A stretch of 64,000 nucleotides of DNA from a virus. The DNA is taken from IMG/VR virus record IMGVR_UViG_3300040786_000016; one strand, given 5' to 3'. The translations under genes were made by a program, and so were the position numbers. Shown here in pieces: positions 1 to 20,389 of this stretch; within the stretch, counting starts at the first letter, position 1; each line of letters opens with the position of its first letter. The notes under the pieces were generated by a model that did no database searches, was not told where the DNA came from, and saw nothing but the letters and a program-made list of their open reading frames with translations.

Positions 1-1016
1 TAACGTAAATAAAGATTATACTGGATGGGAATTAAATAGGTTCTTAGAACTTATGGAAACTAATAACCCAACAGTTTTAGAATTATTAAATAGCCCTGAA
101 GATTGTATAATTAGCAAACACCCATTATTTGATTTAGTATTAGGACATAAACAAGATTTTATAACAAAAATTTGTAAAGATTCATTTGGTGGTTATGCTA
201 GACAGCAAATTAAAAGGCTAATGGTTTAGATAAAAAACAAATTGGGAAAGATAAAGTTACTCGTAAAGATTTACTTGATTTTTTGTTACATACTTGATGA
301 TGAAAAGTCTATACCTTGGAAACAATGGAATTTAGTTAAAAAATTTAATGAAAAGTTTATAGGTGCTGTGAACATACCTAATGCTAGGGATACATATGCT
401 TTATTTTATGATAGAACAGCTGAAATGATACATTCTGAAACATTTACCTCTGAAACTAGAGAAAGATATAAAAAAATTCTTAAAGAAGCTGGTAAACCAA
501 TGGGTTTTGGGTATAAGGGCTTGGTAAATACTGGACATGAAGATGAAGATGGTAAAATTAACTACGGTATTTCAAATCAATTAAGGTTATCTAGTATACC
601 TAAAAAAAAACCATTCGCTATAGTTATATATAATAAAGATGGTTATTCACAACATTGTAAAGATTATAAAGAATATCAAGAGTGGATAGAAAAAGGAATG
701 ACAGTAGATACGTAGAGGTGCAAGGTCATGGTCAACGAATTGATGGTAAAATATGATGCATTGTATGCGACTTATTCAAATGTCAAAAGAGATTGGTCGT
801 GGTGAGGGTATTATAGTACGTAGACCAGATGCTGCTGAGTTACTTAAAATTAGACGTGGAGAGGTTAATTTAGATTCATTGATAGCAATCGCAGAACAAG
901 AATTAATTGAAATGGATAAGATATTTGATGAATCTGATTTACCACGTAGAGTTGAGCCAAATTTAGTAAATGATTTATTAGTTAAAATTCGTAGAGAGTT
1001 TTATCGTTTATCTTAA
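1..1016 (+). CDS. Predicted nucleotidyltransferase (DNA pol beta superfamily, PF10127/RlaP-like), 5' truncated, split by indels
   Basis: Joined frames read ...GWELNRFLELMETNNPTVLELL...SFGGYARQQI...DGKNMMHCMRLIQM...LLKIRRGE...LLVKIR, typical of this family. Confidence 0.75.
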
Positions 1017-1023
1017 AAATAAA

Positions 1024-1349
1024 TTACTCGAAGAGACTATTATGTTCAAATAGAAATTTGATATTATCATCAGCAATTTCACAATCAGTAATGAATGAAA
1101 ATACTTGTTCATCGGTAAGCATACGCCATTCATTCTTAGCTTCAGATTTTGAACTAGAATGTTTTCGGTGTAACCATCGTTCTACTTTAAGGTAATTTTC
1201 AGTTATATATTGATTAAGTAAGCTAATTTTGTTAGGGTTACCTGTTTGAAGTTGTTTAATCCTAAGTTTAGGGTCATTTTAGTAATACCAATTTTATGGC
1301 TCTCATGACCATCAATATCTGTCTGTAGTAAAAGGTAAACATATCCCAT
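1024..1349 (-). CDS. GIY-YIG/T5orf172-domain protein (one indel)
   Basis: MGYVYLL...HKIGITKNDPKLRIKQLQTGNP...KVERWLH...NEW motif. Confidence 0.7.
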
Positions 1350-1452
1350 AATTAGAAATATAATTAATTTTAAAAATAAGTCAATAATTGTTTGATAATA
1401 TTAAATAAATAAAATTTTTATTAAAATAAACTTGATATTTAAAAACTTTTCG

Positions 1453-1499
1453 TATATTTGCTTATATTTATTAAACAACGTGGTATAACCACATAAAAT
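1453..1499 (+). promoter_or_regulatory. Tandem promoter for tRNA operon 1: Bacteroidota -7 box plus ATATTTAT motif and GTGGTA..CCAC hairpin
   Basis: TATATTTG at 1453-1460 (TAnnTTTG consensus); TATATTTATTAAACAACGTGGTA also precedes leader 2 (5842-5877). Confidence 0.7.
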
Positions 1500-1509
1500 A
1501 AAAAACAAA

Positions 1510-1584
1510 ATGAAAAATTTAACAATATTATTGGTCCTTGTATTATGTTCACTAGTCGTGAGCACGATGGGTTATAGTTGTTGA
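1510..1584 (+). CDS. Leader peptide 1 (MKNLTILLVLVLCSLVVSTMGYSC), putative attenuator for the Cys/Val/Leu tRNA operon
   Basis: 24-codon ORF; residues 7-17 are 10/11 Leu/Val/Cys; ATGGGTT (1567-1573) is complementary to the terminator 5' arm. Confidence 0.7.
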   Translation: MKNLTILLVLVLCSLVVSTMGYSC

Positions 1585-1608
1585 TTAAATTTAATCATTC
1601 AAAATATG

Positions 1609-1644
1609 AAACCCATTTGAGATAGTAACTTAAATGGGTTTTTT
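1609..1644 (+). terminator. Intrinsic terminator (attenuator) before tRNA-Cys
   Basis: AACCCATTTGA/TTAAATGGGTT stem followed by a T tract. Confidence 0.85.
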
Positions 1645-1646
1645 AT

Positions 1647-1724
1647 GGTGGTGGTAGAGTGGTCGAATGCGCCTGATTGCAAGTCAGGAAATAAACATCG
1701 CTGGTTCGAATCCAGCCCACACCT
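1647..1724 (+). tRNA. trnC: tRNA-Cys(GCA)
   Basis: Anticodon arm CCTGA-TTGCAAG-TCAGG, T arm GCTGG-TTCGAAT-CCAGC, T discriminator. Confidence 0.9.
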
Positions 1725-1751
1725 CAAAACAATTAAATAAAATAAATAGTA

Positions 1752-2071
1752 ATGGTAGAAAACGAAGTTAAAAAGACTTATACAAGTCTAAAGCAATGGC
1801 TAAATTTAGTCATTATGTTAGTGGTAATTTATATTATAAAGTTGAGTTGGCTGATGGGATATATCAATTTCCAATTGCAACAGTAGAAGAAGGGGAAACA
1901 TATATAGTTGCTGTAGCTTCAGATGGAATAGCTAATATTGACGATGTAGTAACAATAGAATTATCACATGATTTAGGTGATACAACTTTCGCTGCTGAAA
2001 TTAAGGGTTCAGATTTAAATAGATGGATTTCAAAGGCAATCAAGAATGGAGAATTTATAAAAGTAGTTTAA
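1752..2071 (+). CDS. Hypothetical protein
   Basis: ORF 1796-2071, extended upstream across an indel. Confidence 0.6.
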
Positions 2072-2083
2072 TACCTACTTATT

Positions 2084-2158
2084 TGGGGTATAGCTCAGTT
2101 GGTTCAGAGTGTCTGTTTTACAAGCAGAAGGTCGTTGGTTCGAATCCAACCACCCTCA
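2084..2158 (+). tRNA. trnV: tRNA-Val(TAC)
   Basis: TCTGT-TTTACAA-GCAGA anticodon arm; TAGCTCAGTTGG D arm; GGTTCGAATCC T arm. Confidence 0.9.
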
Positions 2159-2387
2159 CTAAAAGATAAAGATGACAAAATATGAAAAAATATGTAGATA
2201 GTGATGGGAATTATTTCTACAAATTGAAATTAGAAAATGGGTCTGAATTCACGGTTGAAAAGAGTTAGGTGATTATCTTCATCAACTTGAGCAAACAGTA
2301 AAGGGAGTTGAAAAACCATACAGTTGTAGTTGTGGATTAGGTGACAAGGTTATTGGTGAACACTATTGTCAGAAATGTTTAGGTGAA

Positions 2388-2537
2388 AACCCATTTTATT
2401 GTGTTTAATAATGTTGGTAAATACCAACATATAACCCATTTTATGCGTTTAACGTTGGTAAATACCAACACATAATGTATGTTATATCATACGTTAAAGG
2501 GTTGTTTTAAGTGATAATGTATGATATAACATACATT
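2388..2537. repeat. Two tandem ~43 bp units, each with a GTTGGTAAATACCAAC hairpin, followed by a perfect 19 bp inverted repeat
   Basis: Units 2388-2432 and 2433-2473; AATGTATGTTATATCATAC (2474-2492) and its reverse complement (2519-2537). Confidence 0.85.
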
Positions 2538-2638
2538 AAAATTGTCATCGCAAAATTGCGAAGGACTTGGTAAGTGACTAGTTCACATCAAACGTAATAC
2601 CTAAAGTTACGCTCCCTATATACGGTATAGGGTAATAT

Positions 2639-2720
2639 GCCCGTTGGTGGAATTGGTAGACACGCACGGCTTAGACCCGATGTGCCGAAAGGTGTGTCGG
2701 TTCGAATCCGACAATGGGTA
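2639..2720 (+). tRNA. trnL: tRNA-Leu(TAG)
   Basis: CTTAGAC loop, long variable arm GCCGAAAGGT, GGTGGAATTGGTAGACAC D arm. Confidence 0.9.
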
Positions 2721-2728
2721 CAAAAATA

Positions 2729-2760
2729 AAAAGCTAAAGATTAGGTTCTTTAGCTTTTTT
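2729..2760 (+). terminator. Intrinsic terminator closing tRNA operon 1
   Basis: AAAAGCTAAAGA/TCTTTAGCTTTT stem plus T tract. Confidence 0.85.
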
Positions 2761-2790
2761 TATATATCTTTGTAATCTAAATAAAATAAA

Positions 2791-3230
2791 ATGGAAAACA
2801 TTTATATAACAGAGTATCGTGTAGATAATATTGAAAATCAAGGTAGAGTATTATTTGAAACAGCTAAGTTGGCTAAAGAAAAGGTTTTGATTGGGGTGTA
2901 AAAGCTTACATTGAAACATTGGAACATACTTTAGAGCTTAGTGATGGGAACATTCTTTTCCCCATCACTTACCAAAAGATGGATAATAAAGAATTAGATG
3001 AATATGATGTTTTTCACGCTAAAGCACCAACACAATCTAGGTTGCAAAATGGTTACGAAGTTCATAATATACACCTTAAGCCAGATTTGCCTTGGATTGA
3101 ACATGGTTGGGAATTAAAGGCTTATTCTTTAAAGGGTGGACGTGAATTATTTTCTATAAACAAATATAAAAATATATTTCTTTTGAGCATGTATTAGAGG
3201 CTGGGTTAATTGAAGCATTAAAAGAATAAA
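2791..3230 (+). CDS. Hypothetical protein (split)
   Basis: ORF 2919-3197 with flanking coding-like sequence after a TATCTTTG promoter. Confidence 0.5.
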
Positions 3231-3756
3231 ATGTTAAGTATTAGATTATAGAAAATATTAATTAAAATTATGAAAACATTAGTAATACATCAAAGATGAT
3301 TCAACTTATTTTCTATCAACAATATATGAAGGTAAAGATTGGACAATAATAAACGATAGGCCAGGTAAAAGCTTATTAAAAAACTTATAAAACACATGAT
3401 AGAATTATAATGATGGGTCATGGTTGTGAAAAGGCTTATTTGATTCTAATTTTGACACTGTAATAGATAGTAATTATGTTTATTTATTAAGAGAAATATT
3501 GTGTTTCAATATGGTGTAATGCTGATATTTTCTTTTTTAAAATATGGTCTTAAAGGTTTATATACTGGTATGATAATATCAGATTATACTGAAGCTAATA
3601 TGAATCAGTAAACGCTACATACCATGAAATAGATGAATCAAATTTTCTGTTTGCTAAAGCAATTAAAAATGGTGTTGATAATGAAGATGTGCTTAAAGTA
3701 CAAAAACACTAGTGAAAATTTAAATAGGGTGATTAATTTCAATGAAACTAGAATTT

Positions 3757-4044
3757 ATGAAAAATTATAAATTAGAAAGGTTAGAAAATGGTGAAACTTT
3801 TCACCAAAGAAAAGGGTAATTCTATGAATCCATTGATAAAATCTGGACAAGAACATAGATTAGCACCAGCTACTTGGGAAAGTGTAAATGTGGGTGACAT
3901 TGTTTATTGTAAAAGTGAGTGGTAATTATACACATTTAGTTAAAGCTAAAAAACCTAGATAAAGGTTGTCAAATTGGTAATAATAGAGGTGGTATAAATG
4001 GATGGACCAAACAAGTATATGGTAAAGTAATTGAAGTTTTATAA
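3757..4044 (+). CDS. Peptidase S24/S26-like domain protein (split)
   Basis: KEKGNSMNPLIKSGQ...VGDIVYCKVSG...THLVKA, the G-x-S-M-x-P motif of S24/S26. Confidence 0.5.
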
Positions 4045-4360
4045 AAAATGTTAGTTTATATCTATTTTTTATGTATCTTTGCGTATTATTAATTTATAAT
4101 TAAAATTATATGAAAATTTTTTGAATATAGAATGATTGACTATGATATGTTTGATGAAGATATGTCAGTTGAAATCGAGGGTTTAACTTCTAGGGGTTGG
4201 AAAATAATTAGAATACTAGACCCATTACCATGGAAGAGTGATTATGATGGTATGTTCATTAGAATTTTCTATCAACGTAAAATAAAAAATAACTAGTTAT
4301 TTAAAAACAATATAATATGAAAATATCTGAAATTAATATAATAATATAAAAATAAAAATT

Positions 4361-4848
4361 ATGAAAATACTAATAGAAAATTATAGAAAGTGGGAAATAT
4401 ATTTTGATACTGATAGTGAAGAATTTTACACACTATCAAATCAATATGATAAGGAAAACACTAAAAAAGTTTTGCATCAACAAAAAAATATATTGATGAT
4501 TACATAAAAGAAAATAGTTCATTTAAACCTGTTATGGTTCAAAAATTTGAAACGACATTTTCTAGTGCTGAAATTATAAAATTGGTAGGTATACGAAAAG
4601 ACAATAAATTTATGTATGAAGATAAAAATGGTAAGATTAAACAATTGTCAACATATGATGAAAAAAATTATTTTTTAGTTAATACTGAGAATGATAAAAT
4701 AGAGTTAAAAATTAAAGAATTATTAGTAGATAAAGACAAAATTATTCGACAAGTGAAAGAAATGGAAAAACGGTTAATTAAAGTAGATGTTATAGAAATT
4801 AGGAAAGTATACTTGGCAAAGAATATTCAAAGTAAAATCTATAATTAA
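4361..4848 (+). CDS. Hypothetical protein
   Basis: ORF 4534-4848 plus upstream frame. Confidence 0.55.
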
Positions 4849-5140
4849 TGATAGTATATAAATTATTTAGACAATTAAAAAATGGTGATATAACACCATT
4901 ATTTATAAATAAAACAAAACGCTTACCTTTTAATGAATGGATGAATGCTGAATCTCATCCAACAAAGGGTTTGCTCTTAGACCGTTTTGGCATTGTACAT
5001 CAACACCAAGTGCCCCTCATTTATCAGAAAAGGTAGGGTATGGTTAAAAGTGGAAATTGAGGATTTTACTGAATTTCAAAGACCAGATAATCAAGGTGGT
5101 AAATGGTATTTGTAATAGAATGAAAATAATTGAAAAATTA
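4848..5140 (+). CDS. Hypothetical protein
   Basis: ORF 4848-5036 continuing across an indel (…WHCTSTPSAPHLSEKGRVW…). Confidence 0.55.
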
Positions 5141-5504
5141 TAGTATGGGACATATAAAGATATGACACCAGAACAAAGACGTGATTTTTTAGCATTTTCT
5201 TATTTAAGGAACAAAGAAGCTAGGGTAGGTAATTCTTTTGCCTACTTCAATCAAAAGTTTGGGACGAACAGGAAAAAAAAGGTTGGTTAATGTATAATGA
5301 TTTTAGTAGAGGTCATAATGATGCAACGAAGTCACAATTAGAAGCTGAAGAAGTGGTTAAAACCCTTAGGTCTGATGGTAATTATGCTAGGATTATATGT
5401 GGTTATGTTCAAACAAAACAAAAGTAAAACATTTTACGGTTATATACAAACTAAAAAATAAATAAGATGTTTTAATATGTTGTGATATTTATTAATAAAA
5501 TATT

Positions 5505-5735
5505 ATGGGAGCAAATAAAGAACAAATATTATCTATTATTAGATATTCATTAACAACTATAGGGACTATTTTAGTGACAACTGGAACATTAAATTCATTA
5601 ATGGTATTTCAAATAGGTGGTGGTATTATGGCATTAATATCTGGAATTTGGTCAATTCTTGACAAAACAGATTCTAACATGGCAATTAAAATGGCAGAAT
5701 ATCAAGCTAAATTAGAGGCTGAAAAGGTTAATTAA
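5505..5735 (+). CDS. Small two-helix membrane protein (holin-like)
   Basis: KEQILSIIRYSLTTIGTILV...GGGIMALISGIWSILDK; preceded by the ATATTTAT motif. Confidence 0.55.
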   Translation: MGANKEQILSIIRYSLTTIGTILVTTGTLNSLMVFQIGGGIMALISGIWSILDKTDSNMAIKMAEYQAKLEAEKVN

Positions 5736-5741
5736 ATAAAT

Positions 5742-5877
5742 AAATTAAAAATAATTACAAAAGACTTGCTTTATCTAAATAAGTGTAGTATATTTGCATA
5801 AGAATTAAAACAAAGAAAAATAGTCTTTTATAAAAAAAGCGTATATTTATTAAACAACGTGGTAAAACACATAAAAT
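5742..5877 (+). promoter_or_regulatory. Promoter cassette for tRNA operon 2
   Basis: TATATTTG at 5789-5796 and ATATTTAT at 5843-5850; 5742-5835 is nearly identical to 19579-19673. Confidence 0.8.
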
Positions 5878-5885
5878 TAAAAACA

Positions 5886-5975
5886 ATGAGAACACTTAAC
5901 AACATATTTGATTTTGCATTTTTTGCAGCCGAAGAGGATTACTCTTTCGGAAGGTCATCTCTTGTCATAAGTTAA
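5886..5975 (+). CDS. Leader peptide 2 (MRTLNNIFDFAFFAAEEDYSFGRSSLVIS), putative attenuator for the Phe/Asp/Ala/Glu tRNA operon
   Basis: 29-codon ORF; residues 8-18 FDFAFFAAEED; AGGTCA (5952-5957) pairs with TGACCT (6007-6012) in the terminator. Confidence 0.8.
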   Translation: MRTLNNIFDFAFFAAEEDYSFGRSSLVIS

Positions 5976-5998
5976 CGAAACTCGTTTAACATAAATTG

Positions 5999-6030
5999 AT
6001 AAAGTCTGACCTAATAAGTCAGACTTTTAT
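5999..6030 (+). terminator. Intrinsic terminator (attenuator) before the first tRNA of operon 2
   Basis: AAAGTCTGAC-CTAATAA-GTCAGACTTTT. Confidence 0.8.
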
Positions 6031-6048
6031 GTAATAAAAATAAATAAT

Positions 6049-6120
6049 GGGACTGTAGCTCAGTTGGTAGAGCGAGGGACATGAAGTCCTGCGTCACAGA
6101 TTCGATTTCTGTTGGTCCCA
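6049..6120 (+). tRNA. trnF: tRNA, probably Phe(GAA); anticodon loop garbled
   Basis: Clear D and T arms; loop reads CATGAAG inside an AGGGA/TCCT stem. Confidence 0.65.
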
Positions 6121-6236
6121 CAAATTAAATTAAAATATGGAAAATTATTTAGAAGAAATAGAATTGACTGAAAAAAATTGTTAGTGTTAAAAAATAAACA
6201 AAAGAATTAGTTAGGGTTATTAAAAATACGAATAAA

Positions 6237-6450
6237 ATGGGTTTCAATAGGAAAGAACATTTTAAAAGTGGTGATATAGTTCTATTTAATGGGTTTGGGT
6301 TAATCATAGCTAAAATTACTGGGAGAAGTGATATAAATGGTAGGGTTGGTTATAATATCGGTAATTCCATGCATTTTGACCATAGTGTTATTAGAGAGGC
6401 GACTATGAATGAGATTAAAATGTTAGGAGAAAAAATCTTTAACTTTAAAA
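6237..6450 (+). CDS. Hypothetical protein inside the tRNA operon
   Basis: MGFNRKEHFKSGDIV...; the track ORF runs on into the tRNA, true end about 6450. Confidence 0.5.
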
Positions 6451-6459
6451 TAAAAATAA

Positions 6460-6531
6460 GGTGCTGTAACTCAGCGGTAGAGTGTTGGTTTGAAGAACCG
6501 ATGGTCGTGGGTTCGAATCCCACTGGCACCA
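6460..6531 (+). tRNA. trnF: tRNA-Phe(GAA)
   Basis: TTGGT-TTGAAGA-ACCGA arm; GGTGCTG/TGGCACC acceptor. Confidence 0.9.
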
Positions 6532-6595
6532 CAAAATATGGAACAACATTGGTCCCGTAATGCCATGGCTCGTGCACGAGTTACGGGACACCTAT

Positions 6596-6668
6596 GCTGC
6601 GTTCATCTAGGGGTTAGGATTTCAGGTTTTCAGCCTGACCACATGGGTTCGATTCCCATACGCAGTAC
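6596..6668 (+). tRNA. trnE: tRNA-Glu(TTC)
   Basis: TCAGG-TTTTCAG-CCTGA arm. Confidence 0.9.
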
Positions 6669-6703
6669 TATCTGGTTAAGATTCCAGTAATAAAATCTAA
6701 ATT

Positions 6704-6778
6704 GGTCTATTCGTTCAACGGCTAGGATGCTACCCTGTCACGGTAGAGATGAGAGTTCGATTCTCTCATAGACCGCCA
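6704..6778 (+). tRNA. trnD: tRNA-Asp(GTC), CCA encoded
   Basis: CTACC-CTGTCAC-GGTAG arm; G discriminator then CCA. Confidence 0.92.
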
Positions 6779-6904
6779 AGTTTACGTAAGCGATACTTAC
6801 TTTAGAAGTAAACAACTCATTGACGTTGTGTGACATATAAACTATGAGGTTGTGAAAGCAATATGGTTTCAATGAGAGTAACGTGTTATTCAAAGTCACA
6901 AAAT

Positions 6905-6975
6905 GCTCCTGTCGTCTATCGGTTGGGACATCAGGTTTTCGACCTGAGAAGGAGGGTCGATTCCCTTCGGGAGTA
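6905..6975 (+). tRNA. trnE: tRNA-Glu(TTC)
   Basis: TCAGG-TTTTCGA-CCTGA arm; GTCGTCTATCGGTT D arm. Confidence 0.85.
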
Positions 6976-6987
6976 CAAAATTAAATT

Positions 6988-7058
6988 GGGACTATAGTAC
7001 AACGGCTAGTACGATGCGCTTGCACCGCATAGATGGGGGTTCGGTTCCCCTAGCTCCA
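6988..7058 (+). tRNA. trnA: tRNA-Ala(TGC)
   Basis: ATGCG-CTTGCAC-CGCAT arm; G3-U70 wobble in the acceptor stem. Confidence 0.9.
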
Positions 7059-7075
7059 CAAATTTAAATAATATT

Positions 7076-7310
7076 ATGGTTAAAAGTGAGTTATGGAAAT
7101 TACAATTAGATAATATAAAAGTATATCTAAATAATAATGGACTGAACGTTGATAAAGTTATAAGGTGGCAAGGTGGTTTCGCACATGGAGGAACTAAACA
7201 TGGTTTAACAATAATAACAACGGTAATTATTAATGGTGAGGAAAAAGGTTTTACATTCCAAGACTAGCACTTACGGATAATGAAGTACTACAATTTTAGT
7301 AGTTAATAAT
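7076..7310 (+). CDS. Hypothetical protein inside the tRNA operon
   Basis: ORF 7076-7267, probably extended by an indel. Confidence 0.45.
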
Positions 7311-7325
7311 TTAAATTAAATAAAT

Positions 7326-7394
7326 GGCCCGTTCGTCTATCGGTTAGGACGCTCGGTTTTCAACCTAGAAAGAGGGTTCAACTCCTACGGGCTA
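7326..7394 (+). tRNA. trnE: tRNA-Glu(TTC)
   Basis: TTTTCAA loop; GGCCCGT/ACGGGCT acceptor. Confidence 0.8.
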
Positions 7395-7400
7395 CAATAA

Positions 7401-7474
7401 TCGAGGTAAGGTCCACTGGCGAAGGATACCCGTCTGTCACATGGGTGAACTGGTTTCGAATACCAGTATCTCGG
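7401..7474 (+). tRNA. trnD: tRNA-Asp(GTC), divergent body
   Basis: CCCGT-CTGTCAC-ATGGG arm; CTGGT-TTCGAAT-ACCAG T arm. Confidence 0.8.
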
Positions 7475-7572
7475 CAAAATAAAGAGTTCGAATTCTTGAC
7501 TATTTACAAAAATATGTTATGATTGTAAAAGAGTTCGAATTATGGAAAACAAATAATTGTGTAACCATAACC

Positions 7573-7597
7573 CATCAGTTTTAATTTAAAACTGATG
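7573..7597. terminator. Hairpin between the convergent tRNA operon 2 and the minus-strand gene
   Basis: CATCAGTTTT/AAAACTGATG. Confidence 0.65.
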
Positions 7598-9671
7598 ATG
7601 TTTAGGTTTATTTTCCAGATACTACTATTACAAAACTTGAATTACCACTAGCGTCAAATTTTTCGTAAGCTAAATCTTTATTAAAATTGAAATTATTTAA
7701 TTTCAAATCAAATAAGCTAGTTCAAAATCATAAACATAACCAAAGTAACCTTTATTAGGTTTTGGTTGACAAAAGTATTTAAATTTATCTCACTACCATA
7801 AACTGATGCATTATTTTTATATTGGGTTAAGTACATTTTACCAGATATTGAGGATACACCACCTATTCTAGTTATAAATATTGATGCATTTACATTTAAA
7901 TCATTAAGGATAAATGTGTCTACTCGATTACAACCAAATATTGAGTTTAATATTATTGACGATGATGAAATATTATATTGTGAAAACTCATTTACAGAAG
8001 GACTAGTATATCCATTACCAAAAGTTGAATTATATACTCTACCGCTATTAGTTATACTACCATTAGCTAAAAGTACACTATTCGAAAATGTATTATAATT
8101 ATCGATAGCCATAGCGTCTAATGCTTTAATATTTACTATTTCACCAATATTATCAATATTAGCTGACGTTAAAATGTTGAATCAGTAATGCTACCAATCT
8201 TTGATGATACGTATATTTTACGGCTACTACCATATCTTTGACCATAATCAGCAAATACTGTATTATTTAAATTAGTGACGTTTATGGAAGAAACAATATC
8301 TTTTGGGTAATTATTTTCTAATGGGATTATAGTAAAATCTTTTGCTGCTGTTTTCCCAGTTGATGTTAAACCACTAAAAATAGATAATGGTAGACTTATA
8401 TTCACACTATATGTTGTTTCGGAATTACTAATTGGAAATCTATAAGCTGAACCAACGGAAGGTGCGCTGGTTGTACCACTAATAAATGGATTATCGACAT
8501 TTTAGCTAAATCAGTATATGCATTTATCTCATAAGGTTCAGATAAAAGATATGCATTATTCACGTTAACACCAGTGTTGCTTATTGTGCAAAAATTTATA
8601 CCACCCATAGAATAAATTGTAGAACCACTAGTCCCACTAAAACCACTAGCTGATTTTTTAAAATTATACCATTCCAATTGTCTGTGTCTAATTTATATCT
8701 TCTATATTTTTGTTCTCTCAATCTTTATTTATTGATATTGACCCATCTAAATTTTCTCTACTTAAAATAAAACCATTTCTAGTACCAATTTGATTTGAAT
8801 TCTCATCATAAATAATATTATCTAAAAAATCGTATTTTAATTTATCACCAGCGTAAGTAACACTTTCAGCTTCTCTTGAAAAGAGTCAACAGCTATTGCT
8901 GTTAATATTATAGTTTCTACTTTAGGTACTGTGTTCTCAGCAGCACTCATTGACATATATTCAGTACCATCATGTACCTCAGTATTTAAAATACCACTTG
9001 GTTTAATTACTGGTTTTACCATAAATATCGTTTATTACAATATTAGAAGGTATATTAGGATATCTTTTTTTGAAAATTGTATTTGTATTCCGATATCATT
9101 AGCATAAGTTAATCTAGGTGAAAATGATATATAACCAGCGTTAAAGTAATCAAGGATATTAACATAGCTACCAGTAGTAGTACTCGCACCACTAGGTGCG
9201 TAAACACATAAAACGGTATCGCCATCAGCGGCAATAGTATCTGGAACGTTATCAAATTGTGAATAAGCACCAGAAGAACCGATAATAGTGTGTATTTCTG
9301 TTCTATCACTTGAGTTTGTACCATTTATTTGGTAAATAGTTTTATAATCATTCAATACATAACGGTTACCAACAGTTAAACCACTAGAATTAACTAAATC
9401 TGTCAATTGACTATAAGAACCAGTAACGAATTCAATTTTAGTTGGTAAATTAAAATATGTTGTTGCTGAGATTGTAGAACCTTTTAGACCATTAGTAAAA
9501 TTTGTGGTACCACTTATAGTGCCCCAGTAAAATTGGTATCTATTCTAGGTTTAAGATACGTTACTAAGTCGGTTAAATCAGTTCGTACTGTAGTGTTATC
9601 GATAACAACTGGTATTATTGAATTTGGGGTTAATATACCAACGGCTAATTCGCTTATTTTTTATCTGACAT
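7580..9671 (-). CDS. Large Gly/Ser/Thr/Asn-rich protein, probably virion structural or tail-fibre-like (many indels)
   Basis: Collinear minus-strand ORF fragments 9406-9035, 8677-8402, 8405-8169, 8112-7717; start MSDKKISEL...; ATATTTAT motif upstream. Confidence 0.55.
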
Positions 9672-10356: not shown

Positions 10357-11155
10357 TGGGAAGATTTAAAGAAGTAACATCAGCAAACAGTGGTACAATC
10401 GTAGGTACAAGGTCTGGTACATCAGAGAAAAAAGCTAAGAATGAATCATCAATGTATATTCAAAACTTGAGGCTGACAAAATTGTATTGGAATCAAAATT
10501 GATGATTTAAGTGATTTTGGTCCAGATGAATCAACATCATTACGTCCAGTTGATAAAGGTTTTAATTTTACAAAATGGGTGGTTGAATTAAATGAAACAA
10601 CTTTAGCGTTAGAGTTGCAAGAAATTAAATTAAAATCTGCTAATAAGGTTCACAACGAATGGTTTGGTGATGACAAAAGTAGGGTTTACTTAGCTAAGTC
10701 AAATAGGGCAAATCAAATATTGTTAGTAATGTTAGAATAACTTTAAATAACTTTGATGTTGATGTAATTGAATATAGCGGTGGTCAATATAGTAATAATG
10801 CTTTACTATCGTGTGACTATTTAGTGGTCGTTCCAGAATCAACACCTAATTTAACAGATTTATCAAGTGAAATATCAATAGGTAAAGGGTTATATGAACA
10901 AATAGAGTCTTTATTGAGAATAATGACAATAAAAATGTGTTTATAATATTAGATGAAAATTTTGAAGTAGGTGGAGTATTTCATCTTAACATTATTAATT
11001 ATGATAATTTCATAAATTATGGTGAAATTGTTTTGTCTTCATATAGACTTGGTAAATTATGTGATGTATTATATGATACGTTTGGTGAAACTAATAATTC
11101 TCCACTTACTAATTTAAATAATGGTGAGTATTTGTTATTATTAACAACAGTATAA
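10357..11155 (+). CDS. Two overlapping hypothetical proteins (about 10357-10690 and 10671-11155)
   Basis: Coding-like frames after a TATCTTTG promoter; ORF 10937-11155 is the end of the second. Confidence 0.45.
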
Positions 11156-11259
11156 ATAATTAGTTCTATGAGGGGTTGTAAAAGATAATCATAGGTAATT
11201 ATGTCAGAAGTCCTACAGACATAACTAATGTAAATAGTGTGGTATAAAACCATACAAAT

Positions 11260-11333
11260 GGTGTGATAGCTCAGTCTGATAGAGCACTGGCCTGAAAAGT
11301 CAGGTGTCGGTGGTTTAAATCCATCTCCCACCA
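11260..11333 (+). tRNA. trnF: tRNA-Phe(GAA)
   Basis: CTGGC-CTGAAAA-GTCAG arm. Confidence 0.85.
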
Positions 11334-11417
11334 CAAATTAGTGAGCCATTATAAGGTGATAAGACTGCGACAATATCGAGGATAGTAAGTGTATCGCAAC
11401 ATTTGCCCTCTCACTAA

Positions 11418-11488
11418 GTGAAAGTACCTTAATGGATAAAGAACCTGTGTCGAACAGGTGCATGCGAGTTCGAGTCTCGTCTTTCACA
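11418..11488 (+). tRNA. trnR: tRNA-Arg(TCG), non-canonical position 33 as read
   Basis: ACCTG-TGTCGAA-CAGGT arm; GGATA D loop (A20); GTGAAAG/CTTTCAC acceptor. Confidence 0.7.
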
Positions 11489-11666
11489 CTATAAACAGAG
11501 TATTGATTCTGATTATGACGTAATAATATCGACCTAGGAAGAGATGTTATTATGGCGATTTCAATAGTTAAGTGGTAACTTTATATCATGGGTTATTCGT
11601 TGGCCCCTACACCCAGTAGAAAACTGAATAAACAAAAAATGATACCATTGGGGAATGGTATCAAAT

Positions 11667-11736
11667 GCGAGAATAGCTCAGCGGTAGAGCGTACCTATAA
11701 AACGGGATGTCGATGGTTCAAATCCATCTTCTCGCA
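11667..11736 (+). tRNA. tRNA, anticodon unresolved
   Basis: GCGAGAA/TTCTCGC acceptor with canonical D and T arms; anticodon arm garbled. Confidence 0.75.
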
Positions 11737-11751
11737 CTAGAATTTTATCAA

Positions 11752-11812
11752 GGGTAGTTAACCTAGTGGTTAGCTGTACATTATAGTGTGGGCTCGAATC
11801 CCAAACTACCCA
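11752..11812 (+). tRNA. Short or degenerate tRNA-like element
   Basis: GGGTAGT/ACTACCC acceptor, TGGG-CTCGAAT-CCCA T arm, shortened D and anticodon arms. Confidence 0.45.
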
Positions 11813-11832
11813 CTAACATTAAATAATTTAAT

Positions 11833-20315: not shown

Positions 20316-20389
20316 GCTATATACGCATAAACGGTGGTGCACAACATTTGTAACGTTGAATAGACTCGGTTCGATTCCGAGATATAGCT
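20316..20389 (+). tRNA. trnT: tRNA-Thr(TGT)
   Basis: TTTGTAA loop; GCTATAT/ATATAGC acceptor. Confidence 0.85.

Follow-up and report, generated by a model that had tools for sequence, protein, structure and literature searches.

Layout of the locus and the reading of the leader ORF

The window analysed here is a stretch of 64,000 nt of viral DNA (IMG/VR record IMGVR_UViG_3300040786_000016). A compact module, about 215 nt long from promoter through terminator (module 1), lies upstream of a small operon of tRNA genes. The features of the module and its operon are as follows.

1432-1460, + strand: Bacteroidota-type promoter, with TTG, 18 nt (19 in the polished sequence) and TATATTTG
1463-1471, + strand: second conserved promoter-region motif, TATATTTAT
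1480-1492, + strand: small stem-loop (GTGGT-ATA-ACCAC) close to the probable 5′ end of the transcript, present in every fold prediction
1510-1584, + strand: 24-codon leader ORF, MKNLTILLVLVLCSLVVSTMGYSC, closed by TGA at 1582-1584, kept in 38 relatives
1528-1560, + strand: proposed sensor run, codons 7-17 (LLVLVLCSLVV), 10 of 11 residues being Leu, Val or Cys
1547-1563, + strand: conserved in-ORF hairpin H1 (GTTCAC / TAGTC / GTGAGC), predicted de novo by RNAalifold
1566-1573, + strand: antiterminator 5′ strand (region 2), GATGGGTT, pairing with 1610-1617, AACCCATT
1582-1597, + strand: 16-nt perfect palindrome over the stop codon, TGATTAAATTTAATCA, the apical antiterminator stem in this lineage only
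1608-1644, + strand: intrinsic terminator, with a 14-bp stem (1608-1621 / 1629-1642) and a T run at 1639-1644; region 3 is 1610-1617
1647-1725, + strand: tRNA-Cys (GCA), the first regulated gene
1796-2071, + strand: ORF of 91 aa inside the operon
2084-2159, + strand: tRNA-Val (UAC)
2639-2721, + strand: tRNA-Leu (UAG), the last gene of the unit
2728-2759, two-way: 13-bp terminator closing the operon

The promoter at 1432 is the only match to TTG-N17-21-TAnnTTTG on the + strand from 1432 to 3424, no second promoter of the TTG...TAnnTTTG type being found between 1460 and 3424, and an equivalent box lies upstream of the leader in relatives. The + strand carries the second motif, TATATTTAT, at just four sites: 1463, 5842 and 19678, which mark three modules, and 25650. 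The last of these sites was considered as a fourth module and rejected, as it is merely AT-rich spacer before a gene. The regulated unit consists of the three tRNA genes together with a pair of small ORFs that lack a Pfam match; it includes no biosynthesis enzymes or synthetases. The 91-aa ORF matches phrog_20427 weakly and is found beside tRNA genes in five relatives, in all five directly after tRNA-Cys and before the Val/Leu tRNAs. The neighbouring gene fragments at 1206-1349 (− strand) and 753-1013 also gave no Pfam match.

The window sequence contains many small deletions, and the stop codon of the leader ORF was checked in two independent assemblies of the same phage, IMG/VR contig L003 and Logan contig X1 (depth 74). 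ORF and stop are identical in both. Compared with the window, L003 and X1 differ nearest the ORF by one inserted base at each of 1440 and 1638 and by a GT at 1647; the lack of this GT in the acceptor stem of the window tRNA-Cys is an assembly error. The gene starts 63 nt past the last base of the leader stop codon. Two ways of extending the ORF were rejected: L003 and X1 rule out a frame that continues past a sequencing error, and reading TGA as Trp is excluded by relatives that have TAA or TAG in the same column (an extended reading would, moreover, traverse the tRNA gene).

A preliminary description of this region had allowed that polished sequence might turn the ORF into a longer, secreted protein, and had cautioned that the peptide resembles a signal peptide. 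The first possibility fails with the stop retained in L003 and X1. A Sec or lipoprotein signal peptide of a secreted protein does not fit either: the stop after codon 24 is confirmed, it is conserved in relatives, no mature domain or other residue comes after the C-terminal Cys, and LVLC is a poor lipobox. The leader peptide had no match in Pfam, and in PHROGs it gave only a weak match (E 0.04) to a PHROG of unknown function.

Conservation of the leader and its RNA structures

We found 38 distinct DNA copies of the module (35 peptides) in IMG/VR, phage and metagenome contigs. All of them combine a short ORF with a T-run hairpin and, within a few bases, a tRNA-Cys, and the Val and Leu tRNAs are present wherever a copy extends far enough downstream. 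The 38 copies come from a single syntenic lineage and cannot be counted as separate origins. The search patterns account for some of the conservation of the core; loci recovered via a neighbouring protein or via a C-terminal pattern have the same core. The preliminary description had rated module 1 the weakest on its own, an assessment that does not survive once these relatives are counted. Beyond this family, a megablast search of 1-4000 against GenBank phages gave no matches, and a distant search returned tRNA matches and two huge uncultured phages with a shared upstream gene, and nothing else; no tRNA genes lie near that gene at either huge-phage locus. No RNA runs were listed as containing 1300-2800, and a single ice-metagenome DNA run contains this stretch.

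The reading frame is preserved across the family. The ORF has 24 codons in 29 copies, 25 in eight and 27 in one, and indels within it are of whole codons only. The stop codon may be TAA (31 copies), TGA (5) or TAG (2) but occupies the same alignment column in 37 of the 38. The untranslated spacer after the stop, in contrast, takes lengths of 22-30 nt that do not favour any frame (13/12/13). Within the ORF, variation in codons 2-8 is spread evenly over the three codon positions, and the N-terminal peptide is thus unconstrained. The order of the core, VLVLC(L/S)LVV, is conserved among the relatives.

Covariation in the terminator is strong. Pairing is kept in 97% of cells over the 38 sequences, and both partners have changed in 8 of 11 pairs, a level of covariation reached by none of 500 shuffles, and the T run directly after the stem is conserved. 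In the window, the hairpin at 1608-1642 has a predicted stability of about −16 to −18 kcal/mol, depending on the stretch folded, and its 3′ arm runs into the T run (7 T in the polished sequence), ending 3 nt ahead of tRNA-Cys.

The segment ATGGGTT at 1567-1573 had been described as a duplicate of part of the terminator 3′ arm that could pair with the 5′ arm. Both points are correct: it is a copy of 1634-1640, it is complementary to AACCCAT at 1610-1616, and the pairing is conserved in the 38 relatives. For the full helix (1566-1573 with 1610-1617), 98.4% of cells are paired, compared with 32-52% in slid-partner controls in which the antiterminator and the in-ORF hairpin were scored together. 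Only one pair changes on both sides (C-G in 20 sequences, U-A in 8), as the 5′ strand hardly varies. RNAalifold predicts the helix de novo once the 3′ arm of the terminator is cut off. The position of the 5′ strand relative to the end of the ORF is fixed; a gap of 9 nt separates it from the stop in 14 of 15 measured copies, and the aligned stop column gives this distance for 37 of 38.

Folding of the nascent RNA gave 6-8 of the 8 antiterminator pairs in the minimum-energy structure of all 15 sequences, and a median helix probability of 0.97-0.98 (37 sequences). When a ribosome was scanned along the window leader, the antiterminator probability was 0.75-0.87 for A-site positions at codons 1-15, fell to 0.45 at codon 16 and was 0 at every later position, from codon 17 up to the stop. 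The terminator is always favoured at equilibrium, and the attenuator model therefore rests on kinetic folding, as for classical attenuators. The antiterminator also forms without any ribosome. The default state would thus be ON, unlike that of trp, and the switch could report on translation generally rather than on specific tRNAs.

The leader region as a whole folds far better than its shuffles (z = −4.9). Within the ORF, all six pairs of H1 form in 38 of 38 sequences, two of them with both partners changed (in 7 and in 14 sequences), and Ser/Leu and Val/Ala swaps in the leader follow the base pairing of H1. This hairpin, which was examined in module 1 only, may serve to pause the polymerase or to help the antiterminator form. 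It is here, rather than at the palindrome, that the conserved hairpin is located. The palindrome at 1582-1597 is, as had been noted, perfect and overlaps the stop codon; the suggestion that it is a pause hairpin does not hold. It occurs in the closest relatives only, it forms the tip of the antiterminator in the nascent fold, and it is not exceptional, as the window has 7 palindromes of this kind where shuffles have 3.7 ± 2.0. We rejected it as a pause site on the grounds that it is neither conserved nor rarer than chance. In the window sequence, the 5′ part of the ORF pairs with 1574-1600; this ORF-wide hairpin was considered as a possible 1:2 helix and is not relied on, as RNAalifold shows no conservation. 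The small stem-loop at 1480-1492 may play some part near the transcript start, and some relatives have small hairpins at its position.

Codon content of the leaders and their tRNA genes

The enrichment of residues 7-17 in Leu, Val and Cys had been pointed out previously and can be read directly from 1528-1560. For the whole window peptide, the Leu/Val/Cys content has a binomial P of about 1e-4, and conditioning on hydrophobic residues only gives about 4e-4. Across the family, a 12-residue core is 82% L/V/C. Ile, Met and Phe account for 4% of the NTN codons in this core against 51% in the genes of the window, and GTT for 5% of the leader Val codons against 46% genome-wide. These biases suggest that the core reflects codon selection rather than plain hydrophobicity, a point that we count in favour of attenuation.

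The fit between the leader codons and the tRNA genes of the operon is imperfect. The proposed match covers 10 of 11 codons; however, four of the six Leu codons of the window leader are TTA or TTG, which cannot be read by the only tRNA-Leu of the operon (anticodon UAG). No tRNA-Leu(UAA) was found within the window, whilst most relatives carry Leu-UAA in the operon. As the ending of the leader on a Cys codon (TGT, then stop) is also found in leader 3 and in one module 2 leader of a relative, the last Cys codon is common to different leaders and should not be counted as Cys sensing. One relative (L007) has an inserted tRNA-Phe yet no Phe codon in its leader, and a few Ile codons have no tRNA-Ile to match. 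Small differences in tRNA content are not followed by the leaders, which counts against attenuation.

Two further modules of the window share promoter motifs with module 1, and a 45-nt repeat is common to modules 1 and 2. Like module 1, modules 2 and 3 have a promoter, a leader ORF, an antiterminator strand at the 3′ end of the ORF, a terminator and a first tRNA. They differ from it in their codon sets (Phe/Asp/Ala/Glu/Ser and Tyr/Pro/Thr/Lys/Gly/Gln) and in encoding peptides that are not hydrophobic. When the three leaders were compared with the three tRNA sets, the matches on the diagonal were 12/23, 16/28 and 16/23, against 2-10 off the diagonal.

Probable leader-peptide attenuation of a tRNA operon

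We consider it probable that module 1 is a ribosome-mediated (leader-peptide) transcription attenuator that gates the operon of tRNA-Cys, tRNA-Val and tRNA-Leu. This agrees with the reading offered in the preliminary description, and the comparison supports it, as 38 relatives conserve the ATGGGTT:AACCCAT pairing together with the terminator and the leader ORF, always before tRNA-Cys. What argues for it in sequence and comparison is the preserved frame, the terminator, the mutually exclusive antiterminator, the geometry of the stop, the codon skew and the lack of a second promoter of the type at 1432. Translation of the ORF, stalling at these codons and termination at the hairpin are what the model predicts from them. 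Judged computationally, module 1 has the short ORF, the run of cognate codons, the intrinsic terminator and the maskable antiterminator of an attenuator; it departs from the usual pattern in that the targets are tRNA genes and not biosynthesis enzymes or a synthetase. The module may thus work like the attenuator family, with a new kind of target.

In this model, transcription would start at the promoter of 1432-1471, and a ribosome would translate the 24-codon leader whilst RNA polymerase advances. Where decoding is fast, the ribosome would reach the stop codon and its footprint would cover GATGGGTT (1566-1573); with this strand masked, the terminator at 1608-1644 would fold and the transcript would end 3 nt before tRNA-Cys. 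Where the ribosome is slow on the Leu/Val/Cys codons 7-15, GATGGGTT would be left free to pair with the nascent AACCCATT (1610-1617). The 5′ arm of the terminator would then be occupied, and polymerase would continue through all three tRNA genes and both small ORFs, as far as the terminator at 2728-2759. Overall, such a feedback loop would supply these tRNAs on demand.

The same elements could instead form a general switch of translation capacity, in which the only thing that counts is the timely arrival of some ribosome at the stop codon. Such a switch would raise the tRNA operon whenever translation is globally slow or blocked (host shut-off and a shortage of ribosomes being examples), with no specificity for Leu, Val or Cys. 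The folding predictions would suit such a sensor, given that the antiterminator forms without a ribosome or with one anywhere on codons 1-15, and so would the four Leu codons that the operon's own tRNA-Leu does not read. A general sensor, though, would not need three modules with three codon sets, each fitting its own tRNA genes, nor a core nearly devoid of Ile, Met and Phe, which make up half of the NTN codons of the genome; we regard it as unlikely. A rather different view would make the ORF a gene for a small hydrophobic membrane peptide (toxin-like or membrane-active), with a leaky terminator, constitutive read-through into the tRNA genes and the L/V/C content a by-product of hydrophobicity. 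The transmembrane- or signal-like segment, the conserved order of the core and the weak PHROG match are all compatible with this. It sits poorly, however, with an N-terminal third that is unconstrained at the amino-acid level, with Ser/Leu and Val/Ala swaps that obey RNA pairing and not peptide chemistry, and with the avoidance of Ile and Phe, the usual membrane residues of this AT-rich genome. Paralogous modules encode non-hydrophobic peptides on the same scaffold, the distance from the antiterminator strand to the stop is constant at 9 nt, and the peptide has no Pfam match; we judge this reading improbable. Set beside the small hydrophobic toxins of type I toxin-antitoxin systems, the leader has an unconstrained N-terminal third, core substitutions that go with RNA pairing, and no Pfam family.

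Were the ORF incidental, the region could be a non-coding structured RNA, either a small RNA or a leader for the processing or stability of the tRNA precursor. We give this very little credence. Although the folding z-score and the two covarying hairpins would be expected of such an RNA, the frame is kept in 38 of 38 copies with whole-codon indels, and the position of the stop is held in 37 of 38 across TAA, TAG and TGA whilst the spacer beyond it is free. The T run, in addition, is conserved directly after the stem, and only tRNA families reached the Rfam gathering score in the window.

Attenuation at module 1 can be compared with several known systems. The ilvGMEDA, ilvBN and leu leaders are multivalent leader-peptide attenuators of enterobacterial branched-chain amino-acid operons. 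Module 1 shares with them a short, hydrophobic, Leu/Val-rich leader ORF placed after the promoter and ahead of the regulated genes, an intrinsic terminator whose 5′ arm can be taken by a competing antiterminator, and a terminator more stable than the antiterminator, such that the choice would be kinetic; in both, completed translation of the leader favours termination (for module 1, as predicted). Unlike them, module 1 targets tRNA genes and not biosynthetic enzymes, belongs to a phage of a probable Bacteroidota host, and has a Cys codon within its sensor run. Its in-ORF hairpin lies beside the antiterminator strand and not over it, and, as that strand is not sequestered by any conserved 1:2 helix, read-through appears to be its default in the absence of translation.

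In E. coli, the pheM leader attenuates the pheST operon, which encodes phenylalanyl-tRNA synthetase. There, as would be the case here, attenuation serves the translation apparatus for the sensed amino acid and not biosynthesis; pheM differs in controlling a synthetase and not a tRNA, in sensing a single amino acid and in being cellular and not viral. T-box riboswitches likewise couple tRNA supply to terminator read-through via an alternative antiterminator. They bind uncharged tRNA directly and independently of translation, however, and span 200-300 nt with specifier and T-box motifs, whereas module 1 has a conserved ORF; the Rfam T-box gave no match in a permissive scan of 1-8000 or in a gathering-threshold scan of the window. 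Leader-peptide control of tRNA genes was not found described in the full-text literature, a search with most subscription journals outside its scope.

Why tRNA genes are present in phages has been a matter of debate for decades. One answer, to which we would give about an even chance, is that large phages of Bacteroidota-type hosts have a demand-sensing tRNA supply, with their tRNA genes divided by amino-acid group among a few operons, each behind a leader written in the codons of its group. Each block of tRNAs would be transcribed only when ribosomes decode its codons slowly, which could come about where host tRNAs are depleted, are cleaved by defence nucleases or are outrun by the codon demand of the phage. 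Module 1 would be the Cys/Val/Leu channel of such a system and a compact, codon-specific sensor of translation speed. If so, the phage would be regulating its supply of tRNA, and classical attenuation would extend beyond enzymes to include tRNA genes, and beyond cells to include viruses. Among the relatives, the leaders of module 1 and module 2 have the N-terminus MKTFNN in common.

Transcription unit and leader ORF of module 1

Module 1 comprises a promoter, a leader ORF and a predicted terminator hairpin placed before tRNA-Cys, -Val and -Leu genes. The features are as follows.

1432-1460, + strand: Bacteroidota-type promoter, the only one of its type on the + strand from 1432 to 3424
1463, + strand: motif TATATTTAT, after the promoter
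1510-1584, + strand: leader ORF encoding MKNLTILLVLVLCSLVVSTMGYSC and ending in TGA
1608-1642, + strand: predicted 14-bp terminator hairpin that leads into a T run, with its end 3 nt upstream of tRNA-Cys
2728-2759: strong two-way terminator just after tRNA-Leu

Given the lack of a second promoter of this type between 1432 and 3424 and the terminator at 2728-2759, the region is a single unit from promoter to terminator, in the order promoter, leader, terminator, tRNA-Cys, a 91-aa ORF, tRNA-Val, a second small ORF, a repeat-rich spacer, tRNA-Leu and terminator. As far as the Bacteroidota-type promoter goes, all three tRNAs would need passage of the hairpin at 1608-1644. From general knowledge of such promoters, we take the TTG-N17-21-TAnnTTTG boxes to indicate a Bacteroidota-like host. 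On the + strand of the 64 kb, TATATTTAT is found only at 1463, 5842, 19678 and 25650, i.e. in the three leader/tRNA modules and one unrelated spacer, and may represent an additional promoter element specific to the modules. In the three modules, the copy follows the TAnnTTTG box at a distance of ∼2-44 nt.

The preliminary description had proposed an attenuator here, from an ORF at 1510-1584 with a TGA stop, Leu, Val or Cys at 10 of the 11 residues 7-17, a palindrome over the stop codon and a segment, ATGGGTT, able to pair with the terminator 5' arm. We recovered each of these elements: the palindrome lies at 1582-1597, and ATGGGTT at 1567-1573 is repeated at 1634-1640 and is complementary to 1610-1616. 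The attenuator reading is supported, with the corrections below. A check of the stop with accurate reads had also been called for; in two other assemblies of the phage, an IMG/VR contig (L003) and a Logan contig (X1, depth 74), the ORF and its stop are unchanged, so that continuation of the ORF into a secreted protein is ruled out. The nearest differences in these contigs are +A at 1440, +T at 1638, which is the seventh T of the terminator T run, and +GT at 1647, which makes the tRNA-Cys acceptor stem perfect again.

More generally, the window assembly is deletion-prone: frameshifts break genes, and the two other assemblies add single bases at many sites. Gene and tRNA calls in the window, including at least 26 tRNA genes that are nearly all on the + strand, should be read with this in view. 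Around module 1, bases are missing relative to both contigs at 1440, 1638, 1647, 1686, 1769, 2084, 2160, 2257, 2438, 2537 and 2551, all single bases except the GT lost at 1647 inside the acceptor stem, and frameshifts disrupt the genes at 2-1016 and 2182-2408. Among named phage records, the sole distant matches to the window are two uncultured phages of ∼640 kb; DNA of the window is present in an ice metagenome run.

Conservation of the reading frame and RNA structures

Relatives were sought by four routes: the 91-aa ORF as an anchor, patterns for the leader core and for the leader C-terminus (both run on viral contigs) and a longer pattern (run on metagenome contigs). All five relatives with tRNA genes near the 91-aa ORF have tRNA-Cys just upstream of the ORF, a homologous leader further upstream, and Val and Leu tRNAs after it. 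With the C-terminal pattern, which does not specify the core, every match in a leader context had a Leu/Val/Cys core and an adjoining tRNA-Cys. Pooling the routes gave 38 distinct DNA copies (35 distinct peptides). In every one, a short ORF is followed by a hairpin and T run, and tRNA-Cys starts a few bases further on. Where the contig is long enough, tRNA-Val and tRNA-Leu come next; the stray deviations are a tRNA-Phe, a doubtful tRNA-Ile and two calls without an assignment. All 38 copies belong to one lineage, and document conservation and not repeated invention.

The ORF has 24 codons in 29 copies, 25 in eight and 27 in one, and indels within it are whole codons without exception. The stop column, common to 37 of the 38 copies, holds TAA (31), TGA (5) or TAG (2); TGA therefore acts as a stop here. 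The spacer from stop to terminator varies from 22 to 30 nt and is spread over the three residues mod 3 (13/12/13). Judged from the alignment, whole-codon indels, a fixed stop and a free spacer form the pattern expected if selection keeps open a frame of constant length.

The helices predicted by RNAalifold on the family were two: the terminator and, within the ORF, a hairpin of 6 bp (1547-1552 with 1558-1563). In the terminator, 97% of cells are paired and 8 of 11 pairs are changed on both sides, which none of 500 shuffles matched. The in-ORF hairpin is paired in all 38 sequences, and two of its pairs are changed on both sides (U-A to C-G, n = 7; A-U to G-C, n = 14). These changes match exactly the Ser/Leu (TCA, TTA, TTG) and Val/Ala (GTG, GTA, GCA) swaps in the peptide; here the RNA pairing would set the amino acids, not the reverse. 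Our guess is that the hairpin could pause the polymerase until the ribosome has caught up, or could form a helix stacked on the antiterminator.

When the alignment was cut before the terminator 3' arm, RNAalifold predicted, unprompted, 8 bp between GATGGGTT and AACCCATT. The antiterminator built on ATGGGTT in the preliminary description was thus recovered de novo, with 98.4% of cells paired in the 38 sequences. One pair is changed on both sides (C-G 20, U-A 8) and the remaining changes are G-U compatible; slid controls, with antiterminator and in-ORF hairpin scored together, were 32-52% paired. Nearly all changes in the terminator 5' arm still pair with the near-invariant ORF strand, while the 3' arm compensates. 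In each of 15 sequences, the minimum-energy fold of the nascent RNA includes 6-8 of the eight antiterminator pairs, and the local antiterminator structure (-12 to -22 kcal/mol) has roughly the stability of the terminator (-12 to -19).

In 14 of 15 copies measured, the antiterminator strand comes to an end 9 nt before the stop codon, a distance that the stop column of the alignment gives for 37 of 38 copies. That strand would therefore be masked by a ribosome whose A site is on the stop. Ribosome positions were scanned by masking the nascent window RNA from -15 to +12 relative to the A site and folding it. The antiterminator probability was 0.75-0.87 with the A site on codons 1-15, 0.45 at codon 16 and 0 from codon 17 to the stop. 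In 37 relatives, either without a ribosome or with a stall near the central Cys codon, the median was 0.97-0.98. At equilibrium the terminator is always favoured in the full transcript, so the on/off choice must be kinetic, as in classical attenuators. Since the antiterminator forms without a ribosome, the untranslated default looks ON in these folds, and in this it differs from the trp attenuator.

Proposed codon specificity and alternative readings

Codons 2-8 vary equally at the three codon positions (entropy 0.95, 1.05, 1.09), and the N-terminal third of the peptide is therefore unconstrained. At codons 9-12, T is held at position 2 (entropy 0.20) and position 1 alternates between Leu and Val. 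The 12-residue core contains, across the family, 207 Leu, 130 Val and 38 Cys among 456 residues (82%), with only 11 Ile, 3 Met and no Phe. GTT makes up 8 of 173 Val codons in leaders compared with 46% in genes, and GTA plus GTG, the codons read best by tRNA-Val(UAC), make up 71% compared with 48%. The window leader has four Leu codons (three TTA and a TTG) that are unreadable by the operon's tRNA-Leu(UAG). No tRNA-Leu(UAA) was found in the window, whereas the operons of most relatives have Leu-UAA and often Leu-CAA and Leu-AAG too; one tRNA-Leu seems to have been lost or moved in this phage. Small changes in tRNA content are not tracked by the leaders. The final Cys codon, replaced by Phe, Tyr or Asn in five relatives, is probably a shared scaffold, because TGT plus stop also closes leader 3 of the window and one module 2 leader in a relative.

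The leaders of the sister modules, MRTLNNIFDFAFFAAEEDYSFGRSSLVIS (module 2) and MKTMTTYQPKQYTQGGLRSANWVC (module 3), both match their own downstream tRNA sets. In a matrix of leaders against tRNA sets, the diagonal scores are 12/23, 16/28 and 16/23 (binomial P of 1e-4, 5e-4 and 5e-3) and the off-diagonal scores 2-10. In nascent folds of modules 2 and 3, the ORF 3' end again pairs with the terminator 5' arm. Modules 1 and 2 have a 45-nt repeat in common in the promoter region. Because the N-terminus MKTFNN and highly similar promoters are common to module 1 and 2 leaders in the relatives, the modules are paralogues with the central codon run exchanged.

We consider it reasonably probable, from alignment and folding, that module 1 would control its Cys/Val/Leu tRNA operon by codon-specific, ribosome-mediated attenuation. 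An ordinary gene for a membrane peptide, suggested by the hydrophobic sequence, is quite unlikely. In so AT-rich a window (∼28% G+C), a membrane helix should draw freely on Ile and Phe: Ile equals Leu in the window's genes (9.4% each, Phe 4.5%), their few hydrophobic 11-residue segments have 23% Ile and 8% Phe, and Ile, Met and Phe take 51% of NTN codons in genes compared with 4% in the leader core. Module paralogy is the strongest argument for the hydrophobic peptide being a sensor and not a membrane protein. A non-coding RNA is very improbable, as it does not predict the conserved-frame pattern of whole-codon indels, fixed stop column and frame-free spacer. A general sensor of translation capacity, with the same parts and no codon specificity, is unlikely, and is left some room by an antiterminator that forms without any ribosome. 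Chance or something else takes the remainder.

In mechanism, such codon-specific attenuation would most resemble that by the leaders of the enterobacterial ilv and leu operons, which are multivalent (Leu/Val/Ile), and by pheM, the leader of pheST. Module 1 has all four structural features of a leader-peptide attenuator, but where such attenuators target biosynthetic or synthetase genes, its target would be tRNA genes. T-box identity was rejected, with no Rfam T-box match in a scan of the window. A full-text literature search covering few subscription journals, and so weak evidence, found no description of leader-peptide control of tRNA genes. Module 1 would thus be a known kind of control in a new form, and is directly testable.

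Neighbouring genes, spacers and other tRNAs

In every relative with tRNA genes nearby, the 91-aa ORF (1796-2071) comes directly after tRNA-Cys and ahead of tRNA-Val and tRNA-Leu; there are also phage contigs that have the ORF but lack these tRNAs. Nothing in Pfam matches it, and phrog_20427 does so only weakly; in a lower-depth strain variant, part of it is replaced (joint 1881 to 2050). The tRNA-Cys is 82 nt in the polished contig (window 1647-1725; L003 3848-3929) with a variable region of ∼12 nt, which is unusual for tRNA-Cys; lengths in relatives are 72 to 84 nt.

In the spacer at 2409-2638 before tRNA-Leu, the hairpin GTTGGTAAATACCAAC is present twice, together with a long inverted repeat (∼2477-2540). 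Contig depth in run X1 rises to 140-308 in and around this spacer compared with 74 elsewhere, and contigs are broken at 2133, 2408 and 2643, leaving loose ends. This pattern suggests that an element between the tRNA genes is repeated or varies among strains.

A tRNA at 20316-20389 was found by Rfam (42 bits) and missed by ARAGORN; its anticodon loop reads TGT (Thr) by eye, which would agree with the presence of Thr codons in leader 3. Upstream of a further cluster at 11150-11820, called as Phe, Arg and Phe-AAA with a tRNA-like stretch at ∼11750-11814, neither a leader ORF nor a T-run terminator is obvious. The cluster does have a hairpin, GTGGTATAAAACCAT, that resembles the hairpin at 1480-1492.
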